The position numbers were made by a program, and so were the translations under genes. Under the pieces are notes generated by a model. The model was not told the origin of the DNA, searched no databases, and was given only the letters and a program-made list of their open reading frames with translations. Source: an archaeon (GTDB lineage: Archaea > Nanobdellota > Nanobdellia > Woesearchaeales > GW2011-AR15). Taken from it: DNA of 64,000 bases. The stretch spans positions 6,308-70,307 of the forward strand of contig JABHXU010000008.1 in assembly GCA_018657065.1 (NCBI GenBank), in the 5' to 3' direction. Positions 4,214 through 48,738 of this stretch are shown one piece after another (positions within the stretch are counted from its first letter, which is position 1; each line of letters starts with the position of its first letter).

Positions 4214-5403
4214 CATCAATTGATGAAATTACAGCAGACAGAATACGAAGTGATAATTTAGCTTCAATTGTTGCAATGGGACCTCAAGCAGCAAACATAC
4301 CATTTTCATTAAAAAAATTTCCAGAAATTTGGGATAGAAATGATCCAAAATTAAAAGAATTTAAAAGACCACCTGTTGAAAACATTTGGTGTGGTCTTGG
4401 ATGTCAATATTATAATATTATGGATGCTATTTATATGGCAGCTTTAGCACTTGATTTAACTCCTGATGATGTAGAAATTGTAGGAGGAATTGGATGTGCC
4501 GGAAGAAGTCCCTTACATGCTGATGTCGCTCAAACTGCAAATGTAACTCATGGACAAGGAGACGCTGTAGCAGCAGGAGTTGCATTAAGTTCAAATAAAT
4601 TAACAATTTCAATTGGTGGTGACGGTGATAAATTAAATATTGGACTTGCATATGTTGTAGATGCAGGCGCTAGAAATATAAGATTTGTAAATTTAATTTT
4701 TGATAATAATGTATTTGCATTAACAAGTTTACAACCTCCCAGAGGGGCACAAAGTCATGAAAAAGGAATGCTAAAATTAGGAGACTCTAATGCTACACCA
4801 GATCCTGACTTCAAAATGAATGCAGCTGAAGTAGGATATTTAGGTAAAACAGGTTTTATAGCCAGAGGTTTTGGTGGAAATGTTCAAGAATTAGCTTATA
4901 TGTTGTCACAAGCATTTATGTATGAAGGAAATTCACTTATTCATATATTAAGTAATTGTGTAAAAGGTAAAAATTTAAAAGATAATGTTGCATTCAAAAA
5001 TAAAGAATGGGTAAGTCCATATCACGATGTATTTGATGGAAATGCGTTACATAGTTTGACAGCTGAACCAGATAAATTATATGGTGGAATTCTTCACTTT
5101 AGGTCTGATAATCCAATGCCATATAATATTGAACCTGAAGGTTTCACACATTCTGAATTCCATAATGGAAAATTAAGAGATGTAAAATATGATGTTCATG
5201 AAATTCCAATCCAAGAAGGATGGGAATTTAAAAAAGGAGTTTTACAACCTGAAGACACAAAACACATAACAAAATATGTAAGATCTGGTGCAGATATTCA
5301 TGATGGAAGAATAAGGCGAAGAAATTTAAAAGAATGGCAAGCTGAACACATAAAAAGTTTAGAACCTCAAACTGGTAGAGAAAGACTTCAAAAATATGTA
5401 TAA
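4210..5403 (+). CDS. Divergent 2-oxoacid:acceptor oxidoreductase beta subunit (ThDP-binding)
   Basis: WCGLGC, GIGCAGR, GGDGD...DN ThDP motif; ATGA overlap with the alpha gene. Confidence 0.85.
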   Translation: MTSIDEITADRIRSDNLASIVAMGPQAANIPFSLKKFPEIWDRNDPKLKEFKRPPVENIWCGLGCQYYNIMDAIYMAALALDLTPDDVEIVGGIGCAGRSPLHADVAQTANVTHGQGDAVAAGVALSSNKLTISIGGDGDKLNIGLAYVVDAGARNIRFVNLIFDNNVFALTSLQPPRGAQSHEKGMLKLGDSNATPDPDFKMNAAEVGYLGKTGFIARGFGGNVQELAYMLSQAFMYEGNSLIHILSNCVKGKNLKDNVAFKNKEWVSPYHDVFDGNALHSLTAEPDKLYGGILHFRSDNPMPYNIEPEGFTHSEFHNGKLRDVKYDVHEIPIQEGWEFKKGVLQPEDTKHITKYVRSGADIHDGRIRRRNLKEWQAEHIKSLEPQTGRERLQKYV

Positions 5404-19606: not shown

Positions 19607-19686
19607 TTTAAATATCTATTTCACCATTTAATAATTGATCACAAGATATTGTGTATTCTTAAAATTAAACATACAACATATTGTAT
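19607..19686 (+). promoter_or_regulatory. TATA box plus two tandem NrdR-box-like palindromes upstream of nrdJ
   Basis: TTTAAATA 19607-19614; TCACAAGATATTGTGT 19639-19654 and ATACAACATATTGTAT 19671-19686 match acaCwAtATaTwGtgt; 32 bp apart start to start. Confidence 0.75.
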
Positions 19687-19710
19687 ATTAGTAGAAAACG
19701 GTGGGGAAAG

Positions 19711-21798
19711 ATGGGAATTAAAGAAGATTTTGAAGATTACATCAAAGAAGTTCCTAAAGAAGATAAATTAGGATTAAATGATAATCAACTTAGAATCATA
19801 TATGCAAAATATTTAATGAGAGATCCAAAAGGTAATGTTATTGAAACACCTAAACAAATGTTTCAAAGAATTTCTAAAACTATTGCTATGCCTGAATCAA
19901 TGTATAAGACAGATGAAGAAGTAGCAATAATTGCTGATAAATTTTATAACATGATGTCAACTTTGGATTTTTTACCTGGTGGAAGAACAATAGCTAATGC
20001 TGGAACTCCAGTAAAAAATTTGGCAAATTGTTTTGTTATTCCAGTTGAAGATAGTATGGAAGGTATTTTTGAAGCAGTAAAAAAAGCTGCTTTAATTCAA
20101 AAAAGAGGAGGAGGAGTGGGATATTGTTTCTCAACTTTAAGACCTAGAAATTCTTGGGTTTCAGGATGCAGTGGAGTTGCATCAGGTCCAATTTCATTCA
20201 TGAGAGTATTTGATGTTATGTGTTCAACAATTATGCAAGGAAATAGAAGAGGAGCACAAATGGCAACATTCCATGTTTCTCACCCAGACATCTTAGATTT
20301 TGTAACAGCTAAAGACGATTTAACACAATTAACTAATTTCAATATTTCTGTTATGGTTGATGACAAATTTATGACTGCTGTTGAAAATGATGGACCTTAC
20401 GATTTAGTTGATCCTCATTCAAATAAAGTAGCTACTACTCTACGAGCTCGTGATTTATTTGACAAAATTGTATATCATGCTTGGAAAACTGGTGAACCAG
20501 GACTTCTATTTGTTGACACAGCTAATAGATATAATACAGTTAGACATTTAGGGGAATTTAAAGCAACAAATCCTTGTGCTGAAATTTGGTTACTTGATCA
20601 CGAAGTTTGTAATTTAGGTAGTATAAACCTAAATAAAATGACAAAAATTGTTGAAGGTAAAACACAAGTAGATTATGAAAAAATTAAAAATATTACACAT
20701 CTAGGAATTCGCTTTTTAGATAATGTTATTGATGCTGGTGAATACCCAACACCTGAAATTGCTATGATGGCTAAAAAAACCAGAAGAATTGGCCTCGGTG
20801 TCATGGGTTTTGCAGATTTATTATATCAATTAGGTCTTCCTTATTCTAGCGAAGAAGGTAGAAAAATTGCTAAGGAAGTAATGAAAATTATTAATGAAGA
20901 AGGTTGGAAAGCAAGTGAAGAAATTGCTAAAGAAAAAGGTGCTTTTCCTGCAATAAGAGGTAGTGATTTTGAAAAACAAGGTAGAATTGTCAGAAATTGT
21001 GCTATAACTGCTATTGCCCCAACTGGAACATTAAGTATGGTTGCAAATACATCTGGAGGATGTGAACCTAATTTTGCTTTAGCTTATATTAAAAATAGTC
21101 ATTCAATTAAAGAAACATTTACTTATGTTAATCAACATTTTGAAAATATAGCTAAACAAAGAGGCTTTTATTCTAAAGAATTAATGGAAACAATTGCAAA
21201 CCAAGGCACTTTAGATGGAATTGATGAAGTTCCGCAAGATGTTAAAAAAATCTTTGAAGTTTCTTTTAATATTTCTGCAGAAGAACATATTTTAATGCAA
21301 GCAGCATTTCAAGAACATGTTAGTAATGCTGTATCTAAAACTATTAATTTTTCAAATTCAGCTACAATTGACCAGGTTAAAGAAGGTTATATGCTAGCTT
21401 GGAAATCAGGTACAAAAGGCGCTACTGTTTATAGAGATGGTTCAAGAGGAAATCAAGTTTTAAATATTAAAGAAGTTAAAAAAGAAGCTAATAAAGAAAC
21501 TCCAAAAGTTGAAGAGATTAAAATTCAAGAAAAACCTTCTGAACCTATGGTCGAATCAATTTTAAAAAATAATGAACTTGAAACTGATGAATCCGTTGAA
21601 AATTCTACAGAGATGCCTTCAACAATTCAAGTTGCACAAATGACTGCAACTTCTGGTGATGCTTCAGTAGTTTTAGAACAGCCTCAAATTTTAAGTTCAA
21701 AACAAATGACTGATTGTCCAGAATGCAAAACAGATCTTGTTAAACAAGAAGGATGTGTTTTATGTCCTGATTGTGGCTGGAGTGCATGTAGTCATTAA
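19711..21798 (+). CDS. nrdJ: Class II (AdoCbl-dependent) ribonucleotide reductase, catalytically intact, no ATP-cone
   Basis: LANCFV, TNPCAE, VCNLGS, IAPTGT, VSKTIN, C-terminal CPEC...CPDC...C; ATG 19711 follows GGTGGG SD. Confidence 0.95.
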   Translation: MGIKEDFEDYIKEVPKEDKLGLNDNQLRIIYAKYLMRDPKGNVIETPKQMFQRISKTIAMPESMYKTDEEVAIIADKFYNMMSTLDFLPGGRTIANAGTPVKNLANCFVIPVEDSMEGIFEAVKKAALIQKRGGGVGYCFSTLRPRNSWVSGCSGVASGPISFMRVFDVMCSTIMQGNRRGAQMATFHVSHPDILDFVTAKDDLTQLTNFNISVMVDDKFMTAVENDGPYDLVDPHSNKVATTLRARDLFDKIVYHAWKTGEPGLLFVDTANRYNTVRHLGEFKATNPCAEIWLLDHEVCNLGSINLNKMTKIVEGKTQVDYEKIKNITHLGIRFLDNVIDAGEYPTPEIAMMAKKTRRIGLGVMGFADLLYQLGLPYSSEEGRKIAKEVMKIINEEGWKASEEIAKEKGAFPAIRGSDFEKQGRIVRNCAITAIAPTGTLSMVANTSGGCEPNFALAYIKNSHSIKETFTYVNQHFENIAKQRGFYSKELMETIANQGTLDGIDEVPQDVKKIFEVSFNISAEEHILMQAAFQEHVSNAVSKTINFSNSATIDQVKEGYMLAWKSGTKGATVYRDGSRGNQVLNIKEVKKEANKETPKVEEIKIQEKPSEPMVESILKNNELETDESVENSTEMPSTIQVAQMTATSGDASVVLEQPQILSSKQMTDCPECKTDLVKQEGCVLCPDCGWSACSH

Positions 21799-21874
21799 TT
21801 TTTTTCTTTAATTTATTCTTTAACGTACTAAAACTTTAAAAATACATAAACAATCTTTTTTTATGGGGTGTATT

Positions 21875-23893
21875 ATGGGAGTTTCTAAAGTTAGAAAGAG
21901 AGATGGAACTATAGTTAGATTTAAACCTTCAAAAGTTTCAACTGCTATTGAAAAATCTATGCTTGCTGTAGGTATGGATGATGATAATTTATCTAAAGAT
22001 CTAGCTGAAAAAGTCATTGATTACGTTAACGAAATCCATGATGATGATTATATAATTGATATTGAAGAAATTCAAGATATTGTTGAAAAAATTTTAATTG
22101 ATGACAACCAAGCTAAATTAGCAAAAGCTTATATTCTTTATAGACAAAAAAGAGCAGAAATTAGAAGATTAAAAGAACATATTCTAGGAAGAATTGAAGA
22201 TTCCAAATTAAATGTTAATGGACTTCTTATAGCCAAATCAAGATATTTATTAAAAGATGATCAAGGTAAAGTTATTGAAACTCCTAAAGAAATGTTTAGA
22301 AGAGTAGCTAAACATATTGCAAGTGCTGAAAGCTTATATAATACACATGAAGTTGATATTGAAGAACTAGAAGAAGAATTTAACGAAATGATTTATTCTT
22401 TAGAATTTATACCTTCAGGTAGAATTCTTGCTAATTCTGGAACAAAAAATAGTATGTTGTTTAGTAGTTTTGTTATTCCTATTGAAGATAGTATGAAAGG
22501 TATTTTTAGAGCTCTTTATTATAAAGCTTTGATCCAAAGATTAGATGGTGGAACAGGTTTTTCATTTTCAAGACTTCGACCAAAAGGAATGAAACTTTCA
22601 ACTACTTCAGGATATGCGTCAGGTCCAACTGCTTTTATAAAATTATTTGATCATGCTAGTAGTTTAAGGGTAGCCGCAGGAAACAGAAAACCTGCTAACA
22701 TGGGATCATTAAATGTTGAACATCCCGATATTATTGAATTTGTTACCATGAAAGACAGAAGAGAAATTAAAAATTTTAATATCTCAGTAGAAATGACTGA
22801 CAGATTCATGGAAGCTGTCAAAAATCACACTCAATATCCTTTAGTTGATCCTAATACTAATGAAGAAATAGATAAGGTTGACGCAAATAATATTTTTAAT
22901 TTAATTGTAACAATGGCCTGGAAAAATGGAGATCCTGGTGTTTTATTTATTGATAGAATAAATAGTGATAACCCTCTTCCATCAATTAGTAAAATAGAAA
23001 CAACTGATCCTTGTGGTGATCAAATGCTCTTACCATATCAGGGAGGAAATTTAGGTGCAATTAATTTAAGTAAATTTGCAAGAAATAAAAAGATTAAATG
23101 GAAACAACTAGAAAAAGTAACTAAACTAGCTGTAAGATTTTTAGATAATACTATTGATTTAAGCAAATTTCCAGTTAAACAAATTGATGATATTGTTAAA
23201 GGAAGTCGAGCTATTGGCCTAGGTATTATGGGCTTTGCTGACATGCTTTATAAATTAAGGATTCCCTATAATAGTGAAAAAGCTTTAGAAACTGCTGACA
23301 AAATTATGAAATTTATTTCACAATCAGCAATGGAAGCATCTAAAGAATTAGCTAATAAAAAAGGTGTTTTTCCTTTTATTGAAAAAAGTATTTACAAAAA
23401 TAAAATTAAGCTTAGAAATTCTTCATTAATTGCAATTGCTCCAACTGGATCAAGAAGTATTTTAGCTGAAACCTCACCAGGTATTGAACCAAATTTTGCA
23501 TTAGGTTATACTAGAAAAATTTTAGGTAGTACTGAAATAGTTCAAATAAATAAAATTCTTGAAAATTTGCTCAAAGAAAAAGATATTTATTCAGAAGAAG
23601 TTGTTAGAAAAATTGTTAAAAACAGATCTTTAGATGAAATTGAAATTGAAGAAAATCTCAAAGAAGTGTTTGTAACTGCACATGATATAAATCCTGAGTG
23701 GCATATAAAAATGCAATCTATTTTTCAAAAACATATTGATAATGGAATTTCTAAAACAATTAATTTTCCTAAAAATGCTACAATGGATGATATTAAAAAA
23801 GCATTTATCATGGCTTATGATTCTGGATGTAAAGGTATAACTGTTTATAGAGAAGGAAGCCTACAAGAAGAGGTGATTTCTTTTGGAAAATAA
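21875..23893 (+). CDS. NrdJ paralog with N-terminal ATP-cone and substituted active site
   Basis: VRKRDG...IEEIQDIVE...AKAYILYR ATP-cone; LFSSFV, TDPCGD, GGNLGA replace catalytic motifs; no Cys tail; ATG 21875 follows GGGGTG. Confidence 0.9.
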   Translation: MGVSKVRKRDGTIVRFKPSKVSTAIEKSMLAVGMDDDNLSKDLAEKVIDYVNEIHDDDYIIDIEEIQDIVEKILIDDNQAKLAKAYILYRQKRAEIRRLKEHILGRIEDSKLNVNGLLIAKSRYLLKDDQGKVIETPKEMFRRVAKHIASAESLYNTHEVDIEELEEEFNEMIYSLEFIPSGRILANSGTKNSMLFSSFVIPIEDSMKGIFRALYYKALIQRLDGGTGFSFSRLRPKGMKLSTTSGYASGPTAFIKLFDHASSLRVAAGNRKPANMGSLNVEHPDIIEFVTMKDRREIKNFNISVEMTDRFMEAVKNHTQYPLVDPNTNEEIDKVDANNIFNLIVTMAWKNGDPGVLFIDRINSDNPLPSISKIETTDPCGDQMLLPYQGGNLGAINLSKFARNKKIKWKQLEKVTKLAVRFLDNTIDLSKFPVKQIDDIVKGSRAIGLGIMGFADMLYKLRIPYNSEKALETADKIMKFISQSAMEASKELANKKGVFPFIEKSIYKNKIKLRNSSLIAIAPTGSRSILAETSPGIEPNFALGYTRKILGSTEIVQINKILENLLKEKDIYSEEVVRKIVKNRSLDEIEIEENLKEVFVTAHDINPEWHIKMQSIFQKHIDNGISKTINFPKNATMDDIKKAFIMAYDSGCKGITVYREGSLQEEVISFGK

Positions 23894-24545
23894 AAAAGTC
23901 AATGATATGCAAAGCTTATCAGGACATAAAAATTCAAAAGAAACTTCTCGTGAAAAACAGTATACTCTCAAAATTTATACAAAAAGGGGTGACGGTGGAG
24001 AAACTTCTTTATGTAATGGATCTAGAACTTTTAAAGATTCATTAAGAGTTGAAGCATATGGTAGTGTTGATGAAGTTAGTTCATATATTGGTCTAGCTAT
24101 TGTTAAAACTTCTCAAGCAGATCTTAAACATCATTTAATGGAAATTCAAAAAGATTTATTTTCTGTTGGAAGTAATTTAGCATTACCTGGAATTTTGGCA
24201 CAATCTCAAATAGGAAAAACATCTCCAATTGAACAAAAAATTCCTAAAATTACTGATGAAATGATTACTAAATTGGAAAATTTAATTGATAAATATGATA
24301 AAGAACTACCTCCACTACACAAATTTATTTTATCTGGTGGAATTGAAGTTTCAACTTTACTTCATGTAGCTAGAGCAATTTGTAGAAGAGCTGAAAGACG
24401 AGTTGTTTCTTTAAAAAGAAGTGAAGAAATTAATAAAAATGTTCTAATATATATGAACAGGTTATCTGATTATTTATTTACAGCAGCAAGACTTGCCACT
24501 CATAGATCTGGAAAAGAAGATCATAAGTGGAATCCTAAAGGGTGA
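23883..24545 (+). CDS. pduO: PduO-type ATP:cob(I)alamin adenosyltransferase
   Basis: [38 protein letters not shown]. Confidence 0.93.
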
Positions 24546-25483
24546 AAAACATGGATGAATATCTTAAATTATTAAATCATATTATGCAAAATGGGTCTGA
24601 AAAAGACGATAGAACTGGAACAGGCACAAAAAGTGTTTTTGGTTATCAAATGAGATTTGATTTAAACAAAGGTTTTCCTCTTTTAACTACTAAAAAAATG
24701 TATATTAGAAGTATTATACATGAACTATTATGGTTTTTGACAGGTAACACAAATATTAGATATCTAGCGAAAAATAAAGTTCATATCTGGGATGAATGGC
24801 CATTTCAAGGATATTTAAATTCAAATGATTTAGAAAAAGATTTTCCAATGTATTCAGATAGCTGGAAAGAAAAAAAAAAGTGGTTTATTAACCAAATAAA
24901 GGAAAATGAAGATTTTGCTAAAAAATATGGTGATCTCGGTCCTGTTTATGGAAAACAATGGAGAGATTTTGATGGTGTTGATCAAATTTCTTGGGTTTTA
25001 AAAGAAATTAAAAAAACTAAAGAAAATAGTAATCATCCTAGTTCTAGAAGACTTCTTGTATCAGCTTGGAATGTTTCGGATATTCAAACCTTAATTAAAG
25101 GAAAAACTTCAGCACCACCTCTTTGCCACACTATGTTTCAGTTTTATGTAAGAAACAATAAACTATCTTGTCAATTATATCAGAGAAGTGCGGATGTATT
25201 TTTAGGAGTTCCGTTTAACATTGCTTCATATTCTCTATTAACAATGATGATTGCACAAATAACTGAATTAGAATTAGGTGACTTTGTTCATACCTTTGGT
25301 GATGCACATTTATACAACAATCATTTAGAACAAACAAATCTACAATTAAGTAGAGAACCTAAAGAACTTCCAAAGATGATTCTAAATCCAAATGTAACGA
25401 ATTTATTTGACTTTAAATTTGAAGATTTTGAATTAAAAGATTACAACCCACACCCTAGAATTAAAGCACCTATCGCCGTTTAA
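24542..25483 (+). CDS. thyA: Thymidylate synthase
   Basis: [39 protein letters not shown]. Confidence 0.96.
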
Positions 25484-25543
25484 TAGGAGCGCGGGGAACG
25501 GCGCATAATTTAAAAAATTAAAAAATAATTAAATGAGGAAAAA

Positions 25544-26026
25544 ATGACTTTATCAATGATTTGGGCAATGGGAAAAAATAGAGAATTAGGAAAAGGATTA
25601 AAGATTCCTTGGCACATACCTAGAGACTTTAAACATTTTAAAAAAATTACTTCAAGGCATAGCATTATTATGGGACTCAAAACTTATGAATCTCTAGATA
25701 AACCTTTACCAAATAGAAGAAATATTGTTTTAGATTTCAAAATTCATGACATTAAAGATGTTGAATTTGCTACTTCAATTCCTATGGCAATTGAAATGGT
25801 CAAAGATGAAGATGAAGCTTTTGTTATTGGAGGAGCTTCAATATATAAACAATTCTTTCCTTTTGTCAATAAATTATACATCACTCATATTGAACATGAA
25901 TTTGATGCAGATATTTTTTTTCCTGAGTTTGATTTAAATAAATGGGAACTTGTTAGTGAAACCAAAGGAATAAAAGATGAAAAAAATCCTTTTGATTATT
26001 TTTTTAGAGAATATGTCAGAAAATGA
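25544..26026 (+). CDS. folA: Dihydrofolate reductase
   Basis: IPWHIPRDF, IMGLKTYES, PLPNRRNIV, IGGASIY, DIFFP. Confidence 0.95.
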   Translation: MTLSMIWAMGKNRELGKGLKIPWHIPRDFKHFKKITSRHSIIMGLKTYESLDKPLPNRRNIVLDFKIHDIKDVEFATSIPMAIEMVKDEDEAFVIGGASIYKQFFPFVNKLYITHIEHEFDADIFFPEFDLNKWELVSETKGIKDEKNPFDYFFREYVRK

Positions 26027-26307
26027 ATTCAATTAAACTTGGTAAATATCAACATCCTAAATAAAAGCTCTGGCTTTTATTGGGATCCTAGAAATCCAAA
26101 GATTTCTATGATTTTAAAGGTAATTTTTACAATGTTTTAGGTGTTGCTAGACATAGTGAAACATTAGAAGAATATGTAGTATATCAAGGATTATATGATT
26201 CAAAAGAATTTGGGAAAAATCCAATTTTTGCTAGACCTATTAATATGTTTAATGATTTAAAAGAAATTAATGGAGAAAAAATTCATAGATTCAAATTTAT
26301 TAAATAA
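26023..26307 (+). pseudogene. DUF1653-family gene interrupted by a 57-nt insertion
   Basis: MNSIKLGKYQH|FKGNFYNVLGVARHSETLEEYVVYQGLY...RP..MF...RF; ATGA overlap with folA; insert carries TAA and TAG in frame. Confidence 0.85.
26056..26112. mobile_element. 57-nt double-hairpin insertion element
   Basis: AATAAAAGC-TCTG-GCTTTTATT and TAGAAATC-CAAA-GATTTCTA hairpins; precise removal restores the DUF1653 frame. Confidence 0.65.
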
Positions 26308-44276: not shown

Positions 44277-45701
44277 TTATCCTTTAATTACTCCTATTGG
44301 CCTAACTTTGGCAACTAAATTGCTAATTCCTGCTTTTTGAGTAATTTTTACTACTTCATCAATATCTTTATAGACTTGAGGTGCTTCTTCAGAAATACCT
44401 CTCCATGAAGCACTTTTAATAAAAATGTTTTTATTTTTTAATTCTGTTTTGATTCTTTCTCCTTTAAACTCTTGATTTGCTTGATGTCTTGACATAACTC
44501 TTCCTGCACCATGAGCTGTACTTCCAAATGCAATATTCATTGTATTTTTTGCTCCTACCATTACATATGATGCTGTTCCCATACTTCCTGGAATTATTAC
44601 AGGATGACCTACTTCCTTATAATCTTCAGGTAAGTCGCAGTGATTTGCTGGAAAACATCTAGTTGCTCCTTTTCTATGCACAATTAACTTTTTTTGTTTT
44701 CCATCAATTTCATGATCTTCAATTTTTGCTATATTATGTGCTACATCATAAACCGTACTTATTTTTACATCACCAAAAACTCTTTCAAAAGCTTTTCTTA
44801 CATTATGTCCTATAACATGCCTATTAGTCCATGCATAATTTGCAGCACATGCCATTGCCCCAAAATAATCTTGACCAAGTTTAGAATCAAAAGGTGCGTA
44901 TGCTAAATCTTTTTCAGGAAGCTTAGCAATTATATCTGCATATTCATCTTCCATTTTTCTTAAATAATCTGTACATATTTGATGTCCAAATCCTCTACTT
45001 CCACAATGAATCATAACAACTACTTGACCCTTTTTTTCAATTCCAAATATCTTTGCAATTTTTTTATCATAAATTTCATCCACAAACTGTATTTCTAAAA
45101 AATGATTACCTGCACCAAGTGTTCCTAACTGTTTTTTACCTCTAGCTTTTGCTTTTTGTGAAACACAACTAGGTTTTGCCCATTCTAATAATCCATTAGA
45201 TTCACAATGCTTAACATCTTCTTCAATACCCATCCCTTGTTCAACTGCCCATCTAGGCCCCATAGTCATAACTTTATTTAAAGTCTCATCATCAATTTTC
45301 AAAGTTGATCCTCTGCCTATACCACAAGGAACTCTTTTAAATAATTGATTTATCAATTCTTCAATTTTTTCTCTAACTTTTTTTTCTGTTAAATTTGTAG
45401 CAAGAAGTCTAACTCCACAATTAATATCAAATCCTATTCCCCCCGGTGTAATGATCCCTTTTTCTAAATCAAAAGCAGCTACTCCACCAATTGTAAATCC
45501 ATATCCTTGATGCATATCAGGCATAGCATATGCAAATTTTTGTATCCCTGGTAAAGATGCAACATTTGATACTTGTTGCAAAGACTTATCTTGTTTAACT
45601 AAATCAAGCAATTTTTTTGATGAAAAAAGTTTTCCAGGTACTTTCATTTGACCTTTTTTTGGTAAATCAAATTCATAAGGTGTTATTTTCTTTATTTCCA
45701 T
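44277..45701 (-). CDS. rtcB: tRNA-splicing ligase RtcB
   Basis: MPDMHQGYGF, DINCGV, GNHFLE, HNIAK, HRKGAT, HGAGR, EEAPQVYK. Confidence 0.96.
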   Translation of the reverse strand: MEIKKITPYEFDLPKKGQMKVPGKLFSSKKLLDLVKQDKSLQQVSNVASLPGIQKFAYAMPDMHQGYGFTIGGVAAFDLEKGIITPGGIGFDINCGVRLLATNLTEKKVREKIEELINQLFKRVPCGIGRGSTLKIDDETLNKVMTMGPRWAVEQGMGIEEDVKHCESNGLLEWAKPSCVSQKAKARGKKQLGTLGAGNHFLEIQFVDEIYDKKIAKIFGIEKKGQVVVMIHCGSRGFGHQICTDYLRKMEDEYADIIAKLPEKDLAYAPFDSKLGQDYFGAMACAANYAWTNRHVIGHNVRKAFERVFGDVKISTVYDVAHNIAKIEDHEIDGKQKKLIVHRKGATRCFPANHCDLPEDYKEVGHPVIIPGSMGTASYVMVGAKNTMNIAFGSTAHGAGRVMSRHQANQEFKGERIKTELKNKNIFIKSASWRGISEEAPQVYKDIDEVVKITQKAGISNLVAKVRPIGVIKG

Positions 45702-48430: not shown

Positions 48431-48600
48431 TAAAAAATGAGCCTGCGAGGATTACAACCAACTGATACCGGTTGACATGTCAGAAAGCAACTGACAAATT
48501 GACTAGCTTTCTGATCATCCTTGAAATCTTTGATTTCTATGAGCTAGCGTTTGCTAGATATAAAATCTAGCTTAGAATAAAAAATGAGCCTGCGAGGATT
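48431..48600 (-). repeat. Duplicated tRNA-Arg 3' end (23 bp) enclosing a hairpin-rich spacer
   Basis: TAAAAAATGAGCCTGCGAGGATT at 48431-48453 and 48578-48600. Confidence 0.85.
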
Positions 48601-48690
48601 TGAACCCCGGTCATCCGGTCCGAAGCCGAACGCACTATGTGCACTATCGTGACCAAATCGTACACGATATCCAGACTATGCTACAGGCCC
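48585..48690 (-). tRNA. tRNA-Arg(TCG) with a 32-nt D-loop insertion/intron
   Basis: Acceptor GGGCCTG/CAGGCTC-A; anticodon arm TTCGG-CT-TCG-GA-CCGGA; T-loop TTCAAAT; removing about 48637-48668 gives 74 nt. Confidence 0.85.
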
Positions 48691-48738
48691 ATGTAATTTA
48701 AACTAATTATTTATATATATATAAAATTTAAGAAAAAA

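Follow-up and report, generated by a model that had tools for sequence, protein, structure and literature searches.

A 57-nt double-hairpin insert that splits a DUF1653 gene in a Woesearchaeales archaeon is probably a small palindromic mobile element

We analysed a 57-nt insert that splits a DUF1653 gene in the genome of a Woesearchaeales archaeon (assembly GCA_018657065.1, here G000; 1.49 Mb, 28% G+C, 25 contigs, 95.65% complete). With high confidence we read these 57 nt as a small non-coding, non-autonomous palindromic mobile DNA element that most likely killed the gene in which it lies. An earlier note on the 64,000-nt stretch of DNA under study (the whole of which we call the window) had suggested a very small non-autonomous mobile element, and this suggestion is now supported by several copies in the genome, by spread across the order, and by three comparisons in which the inserted unit is bounded by AT on both sides.

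The insert and the gene it interrupts

The insert and the two pieces of the gene around it are organized as follows, together with a second unit found elsewhere in the window (R1 is the covariance model described in the next section):

26023..26055, plus strand: 5' fragment of the DUF1653 gene, 11 codons (MNSIKLGKYQH); homologs start alike
26054..26112, plus strand: double-hairpin unit, 59 nt when both flanking AT are counted; 57 of these (26056-26112) are the net insertion
26056..26084, plus strand: hairpin 1, arms 26056-26068 and 26073-26084, loop TCTG
26062..26064, plus strand: in-frame TAA contributed by the insert, at which the product would stop after 13 residues
26085..26112, plus strand: hairpin 2, arms 26085-26096 and 26101-26112, loop CAAA
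26113..26307, plus strand: 3' fragment of the DUF1653 gene, 64 codons and stop, matching PF07866
48477..48543, plus strand: second, more diverged double-hairpin unit, 45 bits with R1, E 1.9e-5

Two hairpins abut within the insert. Hairpin 1 has a 2-bp foot (CC/GG), a 2x1 internal loop (TA opposite G) and a 9-bp stem; its 3' arm is T-rich, and this geometry is common to the members of the family described below. The arms of hairpin 2 are ATCCTAGAAATC and GATTTCTATGAT, and they contain a conserved C/T mismatch. The sole repeat at the two junctions is the dinucleotide AT, which leaves three equivalent placements for the cut (26053/26110, 26054/26111 or 26055/26112). The earlier description of two abutting hairpins with AT as the lone terminal repeat is thus borne out.

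The DUF1653 gene starts with the ATG at 26023, which overlaps the folA stop codon (ATGA). Its 5' fragment closes at 26055 with the codons GGT AAA TAT CAA CAT, and the frame resumes after the insert with TTT AAA GGT AAT and runs to the TAA at 26305-26307; the protein is thereby split between ...GKYQH and FKGNFY.... The 3' piece (26113-26304) matches the Pfam DUF1653 profile (PF07866) at E 6.9e-19 over profile positions 6-61 of 62, and its 68.4 bits against a family cut-off of 23.5 place it in that family. A DUF1653 homolog is present in 12 of the 41 genomes searched, this genome counted, and the other 11 loci are all uninterrupted, with the motif G-x-[YC]-x-H-[FY]-K-G lying exactly at the insert position. 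The earlier claim that excising 26056-26112 restores the frame and leaves no further lesion holds against these homologs. From the upstream in-frame TAG (26089-26091) to 26113, the frame of the 3' fragment contains no ATG, GTG or TTG. With a product that would end after 13 residues and a 3' part that lacks a start codon, the gene most likely became a pseudogene recently.

DUF1653 is the last gene of a thyA-folA-DUF1653 string. The wider region, 19681-26307, is a string of nucleotide-metabolism genes that ends in the broken gene: two ribonucleotide reductase large-chain genes in tandem, one of them with an ATP cone, followed by cobalamin adenosyltransferase, thyA, folA and DUF1653.

Copies within the genome

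Using a covariance model (R1) built on 13 units, with 58 positions and 22 pairs, we find the insert (26054..26112) as the top match in the genome (62.7 bits, E 4.8e-9). Eleven rows are returned at E <= 10; four are clear sense-strand copies (E 4.8e-9 to 1.9e-5), and the other seven are reverse-strand echoes or weak; three of the weak rows resemble decayed or related pairs of hairpins. Each 12-nt arm of hairpin 2 occurs exactly three times in the genome, always paired with the other: in the window at 26085, on contig 2 at 40199, and on the minus strand of contig 5 at 4965-5002. Hairpin 1 is wholly different among these three copies, which are therefore not explained by a single recent burst.

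The note had also pointed out a likeness between hairpin 2 and the arms at 48517-48542. This likeness is real and belongs to a full unit, whose hairpin 1 has a loop of 17 nt and whose hairpin 2 (48517-48543) carries two arm changes, that is, 2 mismatches in 24 arm bases relative to the insert. No match to hairpin 2 at up to three mismatches appears in any of 100 shuffles of the window. Two doubts that the note had attached to its own reading, that the insert might be single copy and that the likeness might be expected by chance, are thus answered by the four clear copies and by the shuffles.

Weaker relatives are also present in the genome: a diverged double hairpin at C11:157498-157553(-), a copy with a decayed hairpin 2 at C13:238256-238310(-), and a lone hairpin of the hairpin-1 type at C7:10892-10908. 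Near the second unit of the window, the 3' end of an intron-bearing tRNA gene (Ala, tgc; ARAGORN -i; minus strand, 48584-48691) is repeated about 145 nt downstream, with 22 identical bases followed by a diverged T-loop (48439-48462 and 48585-48608). The roughly 120 nt between the repeats contain that second unit, and the arrangement looks like the scar of an integration into a tRNA gene. On contigs 2, 13 and 22, introns of Arg, Cys, Ser and Tyr tRNA genes contain paired GATGA-type motifs around a small hairpin, which look like K-turn or C/D-box modules.

A structured family across the order

Units share one layout: AT, hairpin 1 (variable and covarying), AT, hairpin 2 (conserved, with the C/T mismatch), AT. 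Both hairpins are bounded by AT, the middle one being common to both. A unit starts with AT-[GAC]-[CT] and ends with TGAT. Hairpin 1 stands on a 2-bp foot that covaries (GC/GC, GT/AC, AC/GT, CC/GG), followed by one extra base on the 5' side; above this, an A-rich arm and a T-rich arm that closes with TTTTTG-R-Y enclose a loop whose length ranges from 3 to more than 40 nt. The foot is conserved, whereas the upper stem varies freely but is paired in every case. Hairpin 2 reads CC-T-AGAAATC, loop, GATTTCT-A-TG. The insert in the window matches this geometry exactly.

The model has matches at E <= 0.01 in 32 of 61 genomes of the order (25 of 45 among the high-quality ones); individual genomes have up to 16 matches, and 29 have none. 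The exact hairpin-2 pattern, with a free loop of 2-30 nt, is found in 2 of 41 related genomes, and the reversed-pattern control gives 0 in all 41. In a species-level genome collection the exact pattern occurs at 15 loci; 13 of these are loci in archaeal metagenome-assembled genomes, and the remaining two lie in bacterial coding sequence without a hairpin 1 and are taken as chance matches. In the archaeal cases the conserved hairpin 2 is always directly preceded by another hairpin. Metagenomes contain the pattern at 30 loci, about 27 of which, judged by eye, have an abutting upstream hairpin; loci L119 and L129 are without one and L145 is ambiguous. A strict test for an abutting upstream hairpin in a 45-nt window is passed by 22 of 40 loci versus 136 of 2000 random positions, and a 100-nt version of the test is uninformative, with 384 of 1000 random positions passing. 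Exact hairpin-2 matches in the viral contig collection (viral_contigs) number 0.

Distant copies keep both stems through compensatory changes (TAGAAATC/GATTTCTA, TGGAAATC/GATTTCCA and TGAAAATC/GATTTTCA) and retain the C/T mismatch. In an alignment of 41 rows, 96.2% of the cells are paired and both sides have changed in 19 of 22 pairs, figures that are somewhat overstated because the alignment was fitted to the model and some rows come from the reverse strand. In 500 shuffles the observed values are never reached, and every slid control is far lower. Hairpin 2 is identical across genomes of different families whose orthologous proteins are only 21-41% identical. In Rfam, no family reaches its gathering threshold in the window, and around the insert (E <= 10) the best score is 17 bits versus thresholds of at least 40. 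Full-text literature searches returned no description of this double-hairpin family.

Most copies of the family are intergenic. In a survey of neighbour genes at 15 loci, every relative orientation occurs and no neighbour gene is held in common. On contig 5 of this genome, the copy at the stop codon of a gene for a large surface protein runs antisense to its two neighbours.

In some genomes, units lie nested in the middle of longer repeats or of other palindromes. In genome G054 (L096-L102) a repeat of about 165 nt, bounded by 11-nt terminal inverted repeats, has the unit in its middle. This repeat is conserved apart from two stretches, each of some 20 nt and flanking the unit, that differ in every copy; hairpin 1 is the hairpin that the copies share. 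Genome G014 contains a repeat of about 212 nt (for example L062:2945-3160) in at least 15 near-identical copies (97-100% over the aligned part), mostly at contig ends, and the core of this repeat scores 33 bits with the unit model.

Comparison of filled and empty sites

We compared three gene-internal copies with uninterrupted orthologs. All three are clean DNA insertions of the whole unit, both hairpins included, with AT on both sides. One is the insert in DUF1653. In the other two, on contig 2 of this genome and on contig 114 of genome G020, dropping the unit while keeping one AT restores a C-terminus like that of the orthologs.

The unit on contig 2 (40140-40228) starts 11 codons short of the end of a gene for a membrane protein. 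Orthologs at seven loci lack the unit, end in ...PH[FMV]-x-[YH]-K-[IL]... (for example ...PHFIYKIKETK before the stop codon) and directly abut the next gene. With the unit dropped, the right flank on contig 2 reads FKIRERKNEP and stop; as it stands, the membrane-protein gene ends in 10 residues encoded by the element. On contig 114 of G020, a unit of 114 nt with a hairpin 1 loop of 46 nt lies 9 codons from the end of a gene for a fumarate-hydratase-like protein. Read in the matching frame, its right flank gives NNGKVLIE and stop, and orthologs end in ...RLIYYNSNIIIE and ...RLVVEGDEIKIE, each followed by a stop codon.

The flanks of the three insertions are A/T-rich (left ...CAAC, ...CATATT and ...GATTAAT; right TTTAAAGG..., TTTTAAGA... 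and ATAACAAC...). The AT...AT arrangement could stem from duplication of 2 bp, from a crossover core that both sides share, or from an element that itself ends in ...AT and inserts after ...AT.

An automatic scan of 50 copies for reading frames restored by excision proved too noisy in this form. Of the two flagged rows inspected, L050 lay between two genes of DNA polymerase D, and L046 gave nothing clear. At the former locus (genome G024, L050:1501-1556) the unit is located between the small- and large-subunit genes of the polymerase, and the stop codon of the first of these genes now lies inside hairpin 2.

Presence in public sequencing runs

A 1-kb stretch around the insert is represented, with at least half of the sampled words each, in 18 public DNA runs, and in small part in 2 RNA runs; these 20 listed runs come from 17 studies of seawater from 2016-2020. 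A contig from DNA run X17 spans 26019-26169, including the whole insert, with 0 differences. From the RNA library X19, a contig of 209 nt (26017-26225, depth 2.7) retains the insert with 0 differences and 0 gaps. We see no empty allele, excised form or joint across the insert in the contigs of these runs, which drop rare variants. The possibility raised earlier that reads might not support the insert is set aside by the independent DNA contigs that contain it.

Alternative explanations

The unit might be a module useful to the host, made of hairpins that end transcripts or stabilize RNA or of a protein-binding site, in which selection keeps hairpin 2 and the copy in DUF1653 serves as a terminator for thyA-folA. 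This explanation would account for a hairpin 2 that stays identical across families at 21-41% protein identity, for the covarying stems, and for the T-rich 3' arm of hairpin 1 together with the many copies that lie just after genes. However, copies occur in both orientations to their neighbours, including antisense to both; close relatives differ in copy number over a range of 0 to 16, with none in 29 of 61 genomes; three copies damage or alter coding regions; and Rfam gives no match (17 bits at best against thresholds of at least 40). We regard a host module as unlikely, and it is in any case compatible with mobility.

The earlier note had offered as its other reading an archaeal mRNA intron, in which a bulge-helix-bulge is cut by the tRNA splicing endonuclease, the ends are joined by RtcB and the gene is intact in RNA. 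The host is an archaeon with RtcB (44277-45701) and many intron-bearing tRNA genes, eIF2-gamma being also among its gene content, and removal of exactly 57 nt restores a frame with no other lesion. There is a precedent in the bulge-helix-bulge introns of a protein-coding gene of Crenarchaeota, cbf5 (PMC2738675); like these, the insert is short, interrupts a protein gene of an archaeon and leaves an open frame when taken out. In contrast to the cbf5 introns, the insert has no bulge-helix-bulge, nor relaxed forms (hBH or HBh') above chance, and belongs to a mostly intergenic repeat family.

We searched for the motif with a script that places an outer helix, a 3-nt bulge, a 4-bp helix, a 3-nt bulge and an inner helix, with cuts after the second base of each bulge. 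As a control on the genome's own tRNA introns, it returns for 5 of 6 an outer helix of 5 bp with 3-4 of the 4 central pairs formed. For the insert, by comparison, the central helix has 1, 1 and 2 of 4 pairs at the three alternative junctions and the flanking helices have 0-1 bp, in agreement with the note's own failure to draw a bulge-helix-bulge that would give in-frame splicing. Relaxed candidates number 63 versus 69 +/- 19 in shuffles, and those that are in frame would delete conserved residues. Most family members are intergenic and lie in all orientations to genes. The X19 contig retains the insert, a weak point against splicing because contigs miss rare forms and RNA libraries can contain DNA. 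With no bulge-helix-bulge at the junctions and relaxed motifs at chance level, splicing is very improbable, and we have removed the tempting claim of a new archaeal mRNA intron as unsupported.

Translational bypassing, in which the ribosome hops over a stretch of message, occurs in phage T4 gene 60 and at the yeast mitochondrial byp elements. The insert offers a matched in-frame pair TAT...TAT (26047-26049 and 26107-26109) with a hairpin after the first. Such a hop would lose a His conserved in every one of the 11 homologs, and for this reason we reject it as scarcely credible; the take-off codon is also not followed by a stop codon, and family members elsewhere lie mostly outside genes. An assembly artefact or chimeric contig, for which the metagenome-type assembly speaks and nothing further, has next to no likelihood given 18 public DNA runs that match the stretch and an X17 contig that crosses the insert without a difference.

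Search for a mobilizing enzyme

The preferred reading, a mobile element moved in trans, calls for an enzyme. The note had proposed a search for HUH/Y1 transposases elsewhere, and in this genome it came back empty: at 95.65% completeness, G000 gives 0 hits to the Y1/HUH, TnpB, serine-recombinase, IS630 and IS110 profiles (PF01797, PF07282, PF00239, PF13358 and PF01548). It does contain one PF01609 (DDE) gene and four tyrosine-recombinase hits. The PF01609 gene was considered as the source and rejected, its flanks being unrelated to the unit.

Across the 61 genomes, PF01797 is found in 19, namely 13 of 32 unit-bearing versus 6 of 29 unit-free genomes (odds ratio 2.6, Fisher p = 0.11, with genomes that are not independent). 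An IS200-type tnpA element beside a unit on contig 58 of G020, the one element compared in detail, has unrelated GC-rich end hairpins. IS110 was set aside as the mover, being present in only 6 of 61 genomes. No insertion sequence with matching ends is located near the 50 copies examined, and at the loci examined we saw no Y1 gene flanked by units. When the 212-nt repeat of G014 is compared with Y1 loci, a single match emerges, 28 nt at 86%, between the left part of the repeat and the left-end region of a G007 element of the IS200 type. Genome G014 has 13 PF01797 matches.

Y1/HUH transposases recognise folded single strands at the ends of IS200/IS605 elements. Hairpin recognition by such enzymes is also described for REPs (PMC3733652). 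A Y1/HUH transposase of the IS200/IS605-RAYT kind is our leading guess for the mover of the units, a weak and tentative one that the above searches do not bear out.

Discussion

Bacterial REP/REPIN doublets and MITEs are closest to the units in form and behaviour. REP, BIME and REPIN sequences are mobilised by RAYT, a Y1/HUH transposase. REPs are imperfect palindromes of 20-40 nt that form hairpins, often paired or arrayed; they are mostly extragenic, sometimes located in genes or nested in other palindromes, and their copy number varies between relatives (PMC3733652). Our units share with REP, BIME and REPIN the hairpin-folding imperfect palindromes arranged in doublets, the mainly extragenic position with some copies in genes, the nesting and the variable copy number. 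Unlike REPs and REPINs, they are archaeal, their two hairpins have the same orientation and share an AT, they are present in low copy (4 here, up to 16), and they bear no GTAG or CGTC tag; we also find no RAYT-like gene flanked by units and no PF01797 hit in G000.

The units resemble MITEs in being non-coding, non-autonomous, short and repeated, with copy number that varies (4 in G000, 0-16 in 61 genomes). In 3 of 3 cases the unit is flanked by AT left and right, as a target-site duplication would leave it, although a crossover core or insertion beside AT would look identical. They differ from MITEs in that no parent insertion sequence with matching ends is found near the 50 copies examined, unit ends are hairpin feet and not plain terminal inverted repeats, and hairpin 1 is conserved in structure, through covariation, and not in sequence. 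A large census reports many MITEs in archaea, with a minimum size of 41 bp and a Woesearchaea genome among the densest (PMC11602168).

Rickettsia palindromic elements (RPEs) are palindromic repeats inside protein-coding genes, according to PMC3733652, and the insert resembles them in this respect. They differ in being longer, in frame, stop-free and translated, whereas the unit adds a stop codon. In fungal and other mitochondria, double-hairpin elements and GC clusters likewise consist of two adjacent small mobile hairpins between genes and occasionally within them, and for these too no mobilizing activity is known. The original work on the double-hairpin elements is reportedly a paper on Allomyces. 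Those elements reside in eukaryote organelles and have unrelated sequence, and the likeness is one of form only.

Palindrome-associated elements derived from IS200/IS605 (PATEs) have a hairpin near each end on the same strand. The units share this arrangement, and insertion beside a short fixed sequence, as in PATEs, would mimic the repeated AT. The cut sites of IS608 lie 10-19 nt from its hairpins, whereas the hairpins of the units reach the very ends. The IS200-type copy examined (G020 contig 58) has ends unlike those of the unit.

Taking the insert as a mobile element, we propose the following course of events. A copy of the element would have inserted at the AT between codons 11 and 12 of DUF1653. 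A trans-acting enzyme would cleave the feet of the hairpins and make its join at an AT, so that both ends of the insert keep this dinucleotide. Since stems remain paired over loop lengths of 3 to more than 40 nt, what the enzyme recognises is probably a folded single DNA strand or a cruciform; the fixed asymmetry in each hairpin and the cuts at the hairpin feet also point to recognition of a folded strand or cruciform. The T-rich hairpin of the insert may now end the folA transcript.

A more far-reaching reading, which we offer as speculation and think rather improbable, is that the units form an undescribed order-wide archaeal family of AT-inserting double hairpins of 55 to about 120 nt, moved by a hairpin-specific enzyme of a kind unlinked to archaeal transposition. 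Hairpin 2 would then be a fixed recognition handle, and hairpin 1 would be exchanged or rebuilt between moves, as the three copies in this genome with identical hairpin 2 and unrelated hairpin 1 suggest. No transposase family that we searched for tracks the units. Bolder still would be the idea that neutralisation in the RNA allows genes to tolerate the unit.

As a mobile family, the units would represent very small palindromic repeats of the REP/MITE type that are active in reduced archaeal genomes of the DPANN type. The covariance model and the AT...AT boundaries can be used in annotation, where they would avoid false calls of frameshifts or introns, and the family model may aid the hunt for an archaeal enzyme that moves hairpin DNA. 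With one gene broken and two C-termini replaced, the units can knock out or re-tail the genes that they enter.
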